A stretch of 17,524 nt of DNA from a virus (taxonomy: Duplodnaviria > Heunggongvirae > Uroviricota > Caudoviricetes), in the IMG/VR virus record IMGVR_UViG_2713896784_000011; one strand, given 5' to 3'. The notes beneath the pieces are model-generated. The model saw nothing but the letters and a program-made list of their open reading frames with translations. It ran no database searches and was not told where the DNA came from. Positions 9,652-11,161 of the stretch are shown here, in pieces. Within the stretch, counting starts at the first letter, position 1; every line of letters starts with the position of its first letter. Both the position numbers and the translations under genes were made by a program.

Positions 9652-11161
9652 TTATTCTTCGGACTGGTCGTCGGTGTGCTGCGGCTCCTGTCGTTTCGTT
9701 GCGGCACTGCTGCCTCCTTTATCACTGGCCGGATCGGTATCAAATACCAGATCCAGCTTGCGGTTTTCATCAATTTCGGCCTTGCGCCGACGTTTGACAT
9801 CATCCGGATTACGACCACCTGCACGTACCCAGTCTGATTCTGTCGCTGCTCCACCACGAATCTGAATTTTCCAGGCCTCAGCCTCCTTAACAGGGTCAAT
9901 CCACGGCATCACCGGTCCGGAATACACCGCGGTATACAGTGAAGAACGGTCAAGATCGCGGGGTAGCCTGATAACACCGGATGCCACAGCCTGTTTCAGC
10001 CAGGCACGATACATCGGGCGGGTGACGGCACCAATAAACCAGTCCTGCAGGATCAGGTAGCCATCAGTGGATTCAACCAGCTCCTGACGCTGGGCGCTGT
10101 AAGTGCCGTTATAGTTGCGCGCTGTACTGGAAAAAATTCAGACGACTGCCCGCCGCCACGGCACGCAACTGACCATTACGAAAAGTTTCAAGGTTAGGAT
10201 TGGGGCGATCCGACTTCACCATTCCGATTTCTTCGCCGGGTTTCAGATCGTCGTAAATAATGCCTGGCTGAATGGTAAGCTCGCGTTCCTTATCCTTGCT
10301 GCCATTACCATCCGGTTCATAGCTCTGCCCATCGCCTTTCCGGATGTACATCCCCAGAGCAGCGGCGATCCTTGCTGCAGTCAGCTCAGAATCCTCATAC
10401 TCTTTCAGGGCACTGAGGCGGATCAGCACACCGGACAACAAAGACGTCCCGCGCATCTGGTGCAGACGGCGAACAAATTTAAGATGCAGCATTCGCTCTG
10501 CATCCACTTCTTTGGTTTCCATCTGCCGTCCGGATACGGGACGGCTTTTATACACCAGATATTTTTCGGGACGCCCCCAGTCATCAACAAACACGCCCTG
10601 ATTCAGCCTGTTGCTCTCATCACTGGTCATGGGAATAAAGTCTGGCTCGAGCGCCTCCAGCCAGAAATGAACACCGGCAGAAGGCGTCAGGCTGTTTATG
10701 CGCCCGGAAACCATCTGGGCAAACACCTCACCATCGCGCAGCCAGGTACGCAGCATCAGACGTTCCAGCATCGGACGGGTAAACTGCCCGGTGACTTCCG
10801 GACTGACAGACCATTCACTCCATCGGGTGCGTATCTCCGCTGCCAGATCACGGGCAATGGCCCCATTGCGTAATACCGGATGTGGCTCGACAATAATCCC
10901 GTTTTTCCCCACCACCCGTTCTTCCAGCTTGTCAAATACACCAATAACCAGATCGTGGTTGTTATCAAGGTAACGGGCCTGCTCACGTAACGACACGGCC
11001 CCGTACTGGCTTAACTGGTCGGCAGTTCGGTTTTCCCGCCGGGCTTTGTGTGTCCGCGTCGTTTTTACGGCCTCATAAGCCTGGATCACCGCACGGGAAC
11101 GCAGCCTTGCCGCTTTCCATCCTGGTGAAAAAACGCCAATCACATCATCAAGAATTGCCAT
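9652..11161 (-). pseudogene. Portal protein, interrupted by a 1-nt frameshift in an A6/T6 homopolymer
   Basis: N-terminal ORF 10109..11161 (likely start MAILDDVIGVF, ATG 11159-11161, overlapping the gpW stop as TGATG) ends at TAA 10109-10111. A second frame is open from 10137 to 9652 and is continuous in sense (C-part ...STARNYNGTYSAQRQELVES...). The two frames overlap only at 10109-10137, which contains the A6 run at 10131-10136. Combined length about 500-530 aa, typical of a portal. Confidence 0.75.

Follow-up and report, generated by a model that had tools for sequence, protein, structure and literature searches.

A split portal gene in the cryptic lambdoid prophage Sp3 of Escherichia coli O157:H7

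Does a portal gene that is read in two frames reflect an error of sequencing or assembly, a recoding event that still delivers the full-length protein, a gene that functions in two parts, or a genuine loss of the gene? The question is raised by a 17,524-nucleotide stretch of DNA (hereafter the window; IMG/VR virus record IMGVR_UViG_2713896784_000011), in which the reading frame of a lambda-family portal gene on the minus strand is broken. We conclude, with high confidence, that this is a genuine pseudogenising portal mutation in Sp3/CP-933K, a cryptic lambdoid prophage of E. coli O157:H7, and that the gene is presumably decaying neutrally in a prophage that is dead on independent grounds.

Reading frames of the portal gene

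In this part of the window every gene is on the minus strand, in the order terminase small subunit, terminase large subunit, W-like gene, two-piece portal, ClpP-protease/major-capsid fusion and tail genes. The features that bear on the portal break are the following.

11370 to 13472, minus strand: terminase large subunit, intact
11161 to 11373, minus strand: small W-like gene upstream of the portal, named 'head-tail adaptor' in mEp460 and 'putative head-to-tail joining protein W' in other phage records
10109 to 11161, minus strand: 5' piece of the portal pseudogene, from the ATG at 11161 to the TAA at 10111-10109, 350 aa
10138 to 10140, minus strand: TGA that shuts the downstream (+1) frame at its 5' side
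10131 to 10137, minus strand: the lesion, A (10137) and TTTTTT (10136-10131) here against G TTTTT in alignments with intact relatives
9652 to 10130, minus strand: 3' piece of the portal pseudogene, in the +1 frame, encoding SSTARNYNGTYSAQ...DDQSEE up to the stop at 9654-9652
7680 to 9707, minus strand: ClpP-like prohead protease/major capsid fusion, intact and free of internal stops, its start overlapping the portal end

Translation confirmed the coordinates of the initial annotation, in which the two frames overlap only at 10109-10137 and the run A6 lies at 10131-10136 (plus strand, GGAAAAAATTCAG). The run per se is unremarkable, since 32 homopolymer runs of at least 6 bases occur in the window. 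The 5' piece matches the lambda-family portal profile Pfam PF05136 (E 8e-74; 249 bits versus a cut-off of 32.9; profile positions 3-324 of 354), and its residues 1-341 differ from the mEp460 portal by a single exchange, L97S, while its final 7 residues (FQYSAQL) are out of frame. The downstream frame is open from 10137 to its stop with the translation IFSSTARNYNGTYSAQRQELVES...DDQSEE. The initial annotation was also right that portal-like sequence continues to 9652, the 3' piece being identical, residue for residue, to residues 343-502 of the mEp460 and O55:H7 portals, their C-terminal 160 aa. This piece gave no match of its own in a Pfam search, is free of any further stop or indel, and has its first own start codon at ATG 10014.

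Preceded in the head module by the terminase large subunit and the W-like gene, and followed by the protease/scaffold/capsid gene, the locus is placed as is typical of the portal family. The family is further marked by one continuous ORF of ~500 aa, and here the locus departs from it: from ATG to stop the gene measures 1510 nt (1510 mod 3 = 1) and is split at codon 342, as compared with 1509 nt and 502 aa in relatives. Because an ORF for the whole subunit is lacking, we assign the gene as a pseudogene of the PF05136 family and not as a functional member. The solved portals 8vhx and lambda gpB (8k38) were weak sequence matches to the portal of an intact relative.

Ancestral allele, distribution and timing of the lesion

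Alignment with intact relatives revealed that an ancestral CTGAG-TTTTTCC has become CTGAATTTTTTCC (in short form, CTGAG-TTTTT to CTGAATTTTTT). In codons of the minus strand, CTG AGT TTT TCC has changed to CTG AAT TTT TTC C, such that AGT TTT TCC (S F S) from codon 342 onward now reads AAT TTT TTC C. The net change is a gain of one base plus an adjoining G>A, appearing in the difference list as a substitution at 10137 and a gap at 10136, and the run before the mutation was T5. The single-nucleotide frameshift in an A6/T6 run that had initially been proposed is thus correct as to the net +1 base, but the neighbouring substitution and the shorter ancestral run make it something other than a simple change of run length. 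The 502-aa portal of mEp460 reads ...AAGSRLSFSSTARNYNGTYSAQ... uninterrupted over the site. Removal of one T in silico yields a 502-aa portal in which 2 of the 502 residues differ from mEp460 and likewise 2 of 502 from O55:H7; as the restored protein is nearly identical to its relatives, the lesion is recent and has not been followed by further decay.

Exact copies of the site-spanning 81-mer are present in 287 complete E. coli genome records, Sakai and EDL933 included, and the best 30 full-length matches to the 1651-nt portal region are 100% identical and belong to O157:H7-type genomes. The ancestral allele, AGT followed by T5, is found exactly in 674 records among 5,426 complete genomes. Comparison with the intact portal of close relatives, which had been suggested at the outset, gave an in-frame gene of 1509 nt and 502 aa in ~1,560 other E. 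coli genome records, in 16 phage genome records and in E. coli O55:H7 DEC5D. The 16 phage genome records (mEp460, cdtI, Ayreon, phi458, Tritos and others) are 98.2-99.2% identical to the query, with 1650 nt versus its 1651 nt, and carry one portal gene each; a split portal was found in none of them. In DEC5D, too, the bio-ybhB site is occupied by the orthologous prophage; its cargo likewise comprises nleB2, nleC, nleH1-1 and nleD, and its portal gene is intact at 1509 nt. In the 14.2 kb compared, 14 substitutions and a single indel separate the O157 copy from the O55 copy, the indel being that at 10136 and one of the substitutions that at 10137.

Because the portal frameshift is absent from O55:H7 DEC5D and from every other intact-allele genome found, it arose after O157:H7 had split from the DEC5D-type O55:H7 lineage. 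Judged from these alignments, the frameshift is derived and the in-frame 1509-nt gene is ancestral. The allele AATTTTTT, as against AGTTTTT, is a clean marker that distinguishes the O157:H7 Sp3 copy from the O55:H7 copy and all other copies found.

Pure slippage from T5 to T6 was considered as the origin of the lesion and rejected, as the lesion includes the neighbouring substitution and one-step intermediates are absent from the 5,426 complete genomes. Exact 80/81-mers of the intermediates AAT+T5, AGT+T6 and ATT+T5 numbered 0 in these complete E. coli genomes, a count that covers complete genomes and would overlook intermediate alleles with another nearby SNP. By our own estimate, based on 14 substitutions in 14.2 kb, the chance that a substitution adjoins the sole indel is ~0.002. 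Given the absence of intermediates and this low chance of adjacency, the lesion probably represents one complex event, most simply a replacement of G by AT, or two closely coupled events.

Decay of Sp3 in O157:H7 and of its O55:H7 counterpart

At 99.98% identity and with no gaps, the window matches prophage Sp3 of strain Sakai and the same prophage of EDL933, known there as CP-933K. In the Sakai record (NC_002695.2) this element is a 'prophage Sp3, lambda-like phage' bounded by ybhC and ybhB/bioA (the gal-bio site). Its int and bet genes are pseudogenes, cI, cro, O and P are missing, and its cargo comprises lpxR and the type III secretion effector genes nleB2-1, nleC, nleH1-1 and nleD. In the same record ECs_0827, which covers 363 nt of the downstream portal piece, is named 'phage portal protein' and flagged as a pseudogene. 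The 85 consecutive N at 15300-15384 of the window fall inside the rrrD lysozyme gene, where Sakai and EDL933 have 195 bp; as the complete genomes differ from it in length, the gap is a placeholder of untrue size.

In EDL933 and many other O157 genomes, RefSeq PGAP lists each portal piece as a normal CDS for a 'phage portal protein' (WP_010904538.1, WP_127446149.1) with no pseudogene flag, and begins the first piece at GTG 11233 (span 9652-11233; L001 10018-11599), where intact relatives use ATG 11161. Such unflagged double portal CDS in many RefSeq O157 genomes inflate protein-family counts.

In the functional survey of Asadulghani et al. 2009 (PMC2669165), the portal of Sp3 is rated 'D' (defective) in Table 1, its repressor, antirepressor and replication functions as absent, and its integration and recombination functions as defective, and Table 2 reports experiments in which Sp3 showed no circularisation (excision), replication or packaging. 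In the portions of that article available to us, the word 'frameshift' does not occur and the portal lesion is not described. 'Head: absent' is listed there for Sp3 (PMC2669165), yet the 675-aa ORF of the ClpP-like protease/major-capsid fusion is uninterrupted at 7680-9707 of the minus strand. The head module of Sp3 is of the mEp460/cdtI type, unlike the C/Nu3/D/E type of lambda. That the portal is defective is therefore already known, both from annotation and from the published survey; the present comparison adds the exact ancestral state (AGT+T5), the adjoining substitution and the timing after the O55:H7 split.

The portal defect is one of several in Sp3 and is not the limiting one, because int is disrupted, cI, cro, O and P are lost, and the prophage neither circularises nor replicates nor is packaged. 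The initial proposal that the lesion leaves the prophage unable to package DNA is therefore moot, Sp3 being dead for other reasons.

The early region of the O55:H7 DEC5D prophage is whole, with int, xis, exo, bet, gam, kil, cIII, N, cI, cro, cII, O, P, ren and ninB-G. In Sp3 of O157, the part of the early region between bet and ninG has been lost, and only a fragment of int remains (Sakai, L004 6125-13000, versus DEC5D, L005 36000-49001). DEC5D has none of three O157 lesions: the large deletion in the early region, the damage to int and the frameshift in the portal gene. Conversely, the ClpP/capsid fusion gene, intact in O157, carries the nonsense mutation Q334* in DEC5D (L003 9466-11493, corresponding to 9707-7680 of the window). 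With its own Q334* and an intact portal gene, the O55 copy shows that the same prophage decayed independently, and presumably neutrally, in the O157 and O55 sister lineages.

The course of events that we favor begins with a net +1 insertion and a neighbouring G>A at codon 342 after the O55:H7 split. Translation now halts 7 codons on, at the TAA at 10111-10109, giving a 350-aa product that lacks the C-terminal 160 residues (343-502) of a 502-aa portal. The conserved block ...AAGSRLSFSSTARNY..., alignable with lambda gpB and with a second solved portal, is interrupted by the break, which falls at position 324 of 354 in the Pfam profile; since the lost part begins within the conserved core of the lambda family, the 350-aa product is predicted to be incapable of forming a working portal. 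The common allele of the 287 exact-match records reflects clonal inheritance and not selection, and the portal gene is decaying, presumably neutrally, in a prophage that is independently dead through its broken int and bet and its deleted cI, cro, O and P.

Alternative explanations and comparison with known systems

The pieces could, in principle, belong to a gene that is truly in frame and intact, its apparent break being a homopolymer error of sequencing or assembly, as the initial annotation had considered plausible. The source assembly does contain the 85-N gap, and A6/T6 runs are classic sites of indel errors. However, the identical allele recurs in the 287 complete genome records, Sakai and EDL933 among them, the site also carries the base substitution at 10137, which a miscalled run length would not produce, and the Sakai curators annotated a pseudogene. 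Because independent assemblies carry the same allele, the matter is settled without recourse to reads; the probability left to an error is negligible, and the other initial proposal, a real inactivating mutation, is supported by the reproducible allele and the in-frame relatives. No more credible is a split gene that functions as such, or a truncated portal kept for a new role, for example as a dominant-negative against the heads of superinfecting mEp460-like phages. The uniformity of the allele over the O157:H7 matches and the treatment of both pieces as ordinary CDS by PGAP would fit this idea, but clonal descent accounts for the uniformity, no intact-phage relative has a split portal, the break falls within the Pfam core (profile position 324 of 354), the 3' piece is without a start codon until ATG 10014, and with the early regulators deleted the sequence offers no sign of expression.

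Recoding, by programmed +1 ribosomal frameshifting or by transcriptional slippage on the U6/T6 run, would restore the full-length portal, and we regard it as very unlikely. Only 12 portal copies are required per capsid, tRNA-Phe on UUU could re-pair perfectly one base downstream (UUU_U), the deletion of one U from the mRNA would give a nearly wild-type portal with N342 for S342, and the 3' piece is still undamaged, a state expected of a recent lesion in a clonal lineage and equally of a gene still in use. Against this, the gene is in frame in all functional relatives (16 phage records and the O55:H7 prophage; 674 exact ancestral records), so that the shift is not conserved. In AAU UUU UUC CAG, the 0-frame A-site codon is UUC, neither a stop nor rare, a +1 shift is required, and the run has only 6 bases; efficient transcriptional slippage usually needs runs of ~8-9 or longer. 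Folding of the 96 nt that surround and follow the site gave a minimum free energy of -19.4 kcal/mol versus -22.3 on average for shuffled sequence (z +0.94), with no gain in stability, and Sp3 is unable to excise or replicate and hence under no selection for a portal. The portal site accordingly lacks conservation in relatives, a shift motif with a pause element or long run, and a stimulatory RNA structure, and a literature search for programmed frameshifts in portals returned nothing relevant. Spontaneous +1 slippage on U6 may give a trace of full-length portal, and it is very improbable that low-level +1 slippage at AAU UUU UUC C, whether ribosomal or through transcriptional loss of one U, yields some full-length N342 portal. 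If it did, the otherwise intact head module of Sp3 (terminase, ClpP/capsid fusion) could build capsids and help to package other O157 prophages, in the sense of the 'defective prophage pool' of Asadulghani et al.

A pseudogenising mutation remains our reading of the locus: the frame is disrupted relative to intact orthologues in independent assemblies, and Sp3 has other lesions and no phage activity. On this basis, the split portal is truly a pseudogene and is fixed in the lineage; it belongs to a defective prophage that has been well studied and carries effector genes, and it matters little beyond bookkeeping.

A known type of recoding has its counterpart in the same window, where the tail assembly chaperones are arranged as in lambda G/GT.

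5199 to 4813, minus strand: tail assembly chaperone G
4804 to 4475, minus strand: tail assembly chaperone T

G ends ...CCG GAA AAG TCC TGA (TGA at 4815-4813); a -1 shift at GGAAAAG, 4825-4819, would lead into the T frame. The lambda heptamer GGGAAAG was also sought and gave only chance-level matches in the window, the G/T overlap using GGAAAAG instead. Tailed phages in general share the G/GT frameshift, which takes place on a slippery heptamer. Like the portal, the lambda G/GT chaperones form an overlapping pair of frames, and there the pair gives one functional product; in contrast, no functional relative has the portal shift, which would have to be +1 and is without a stimulator.

Between the window and the portal pseudogene of Sakai Sp3 (ECs_0826/ECs_0827), which equals that of EDL933 CP-933K, there is no substantive difference, the locus and the allele being the same and the 81-mer identical. 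Lastly, mEp460 (YP_007112078.1), cdtI and related lambdoid phages resemble the window in their DNA (~99% identity) and in the order terminase, W-like gene, portal and ClpP-capsid fusion, and differ from it in the portal itself, which in mEp460-type phages is one continuous ORF of 1509 nt and in the window is 1510 nt long and interrupted.
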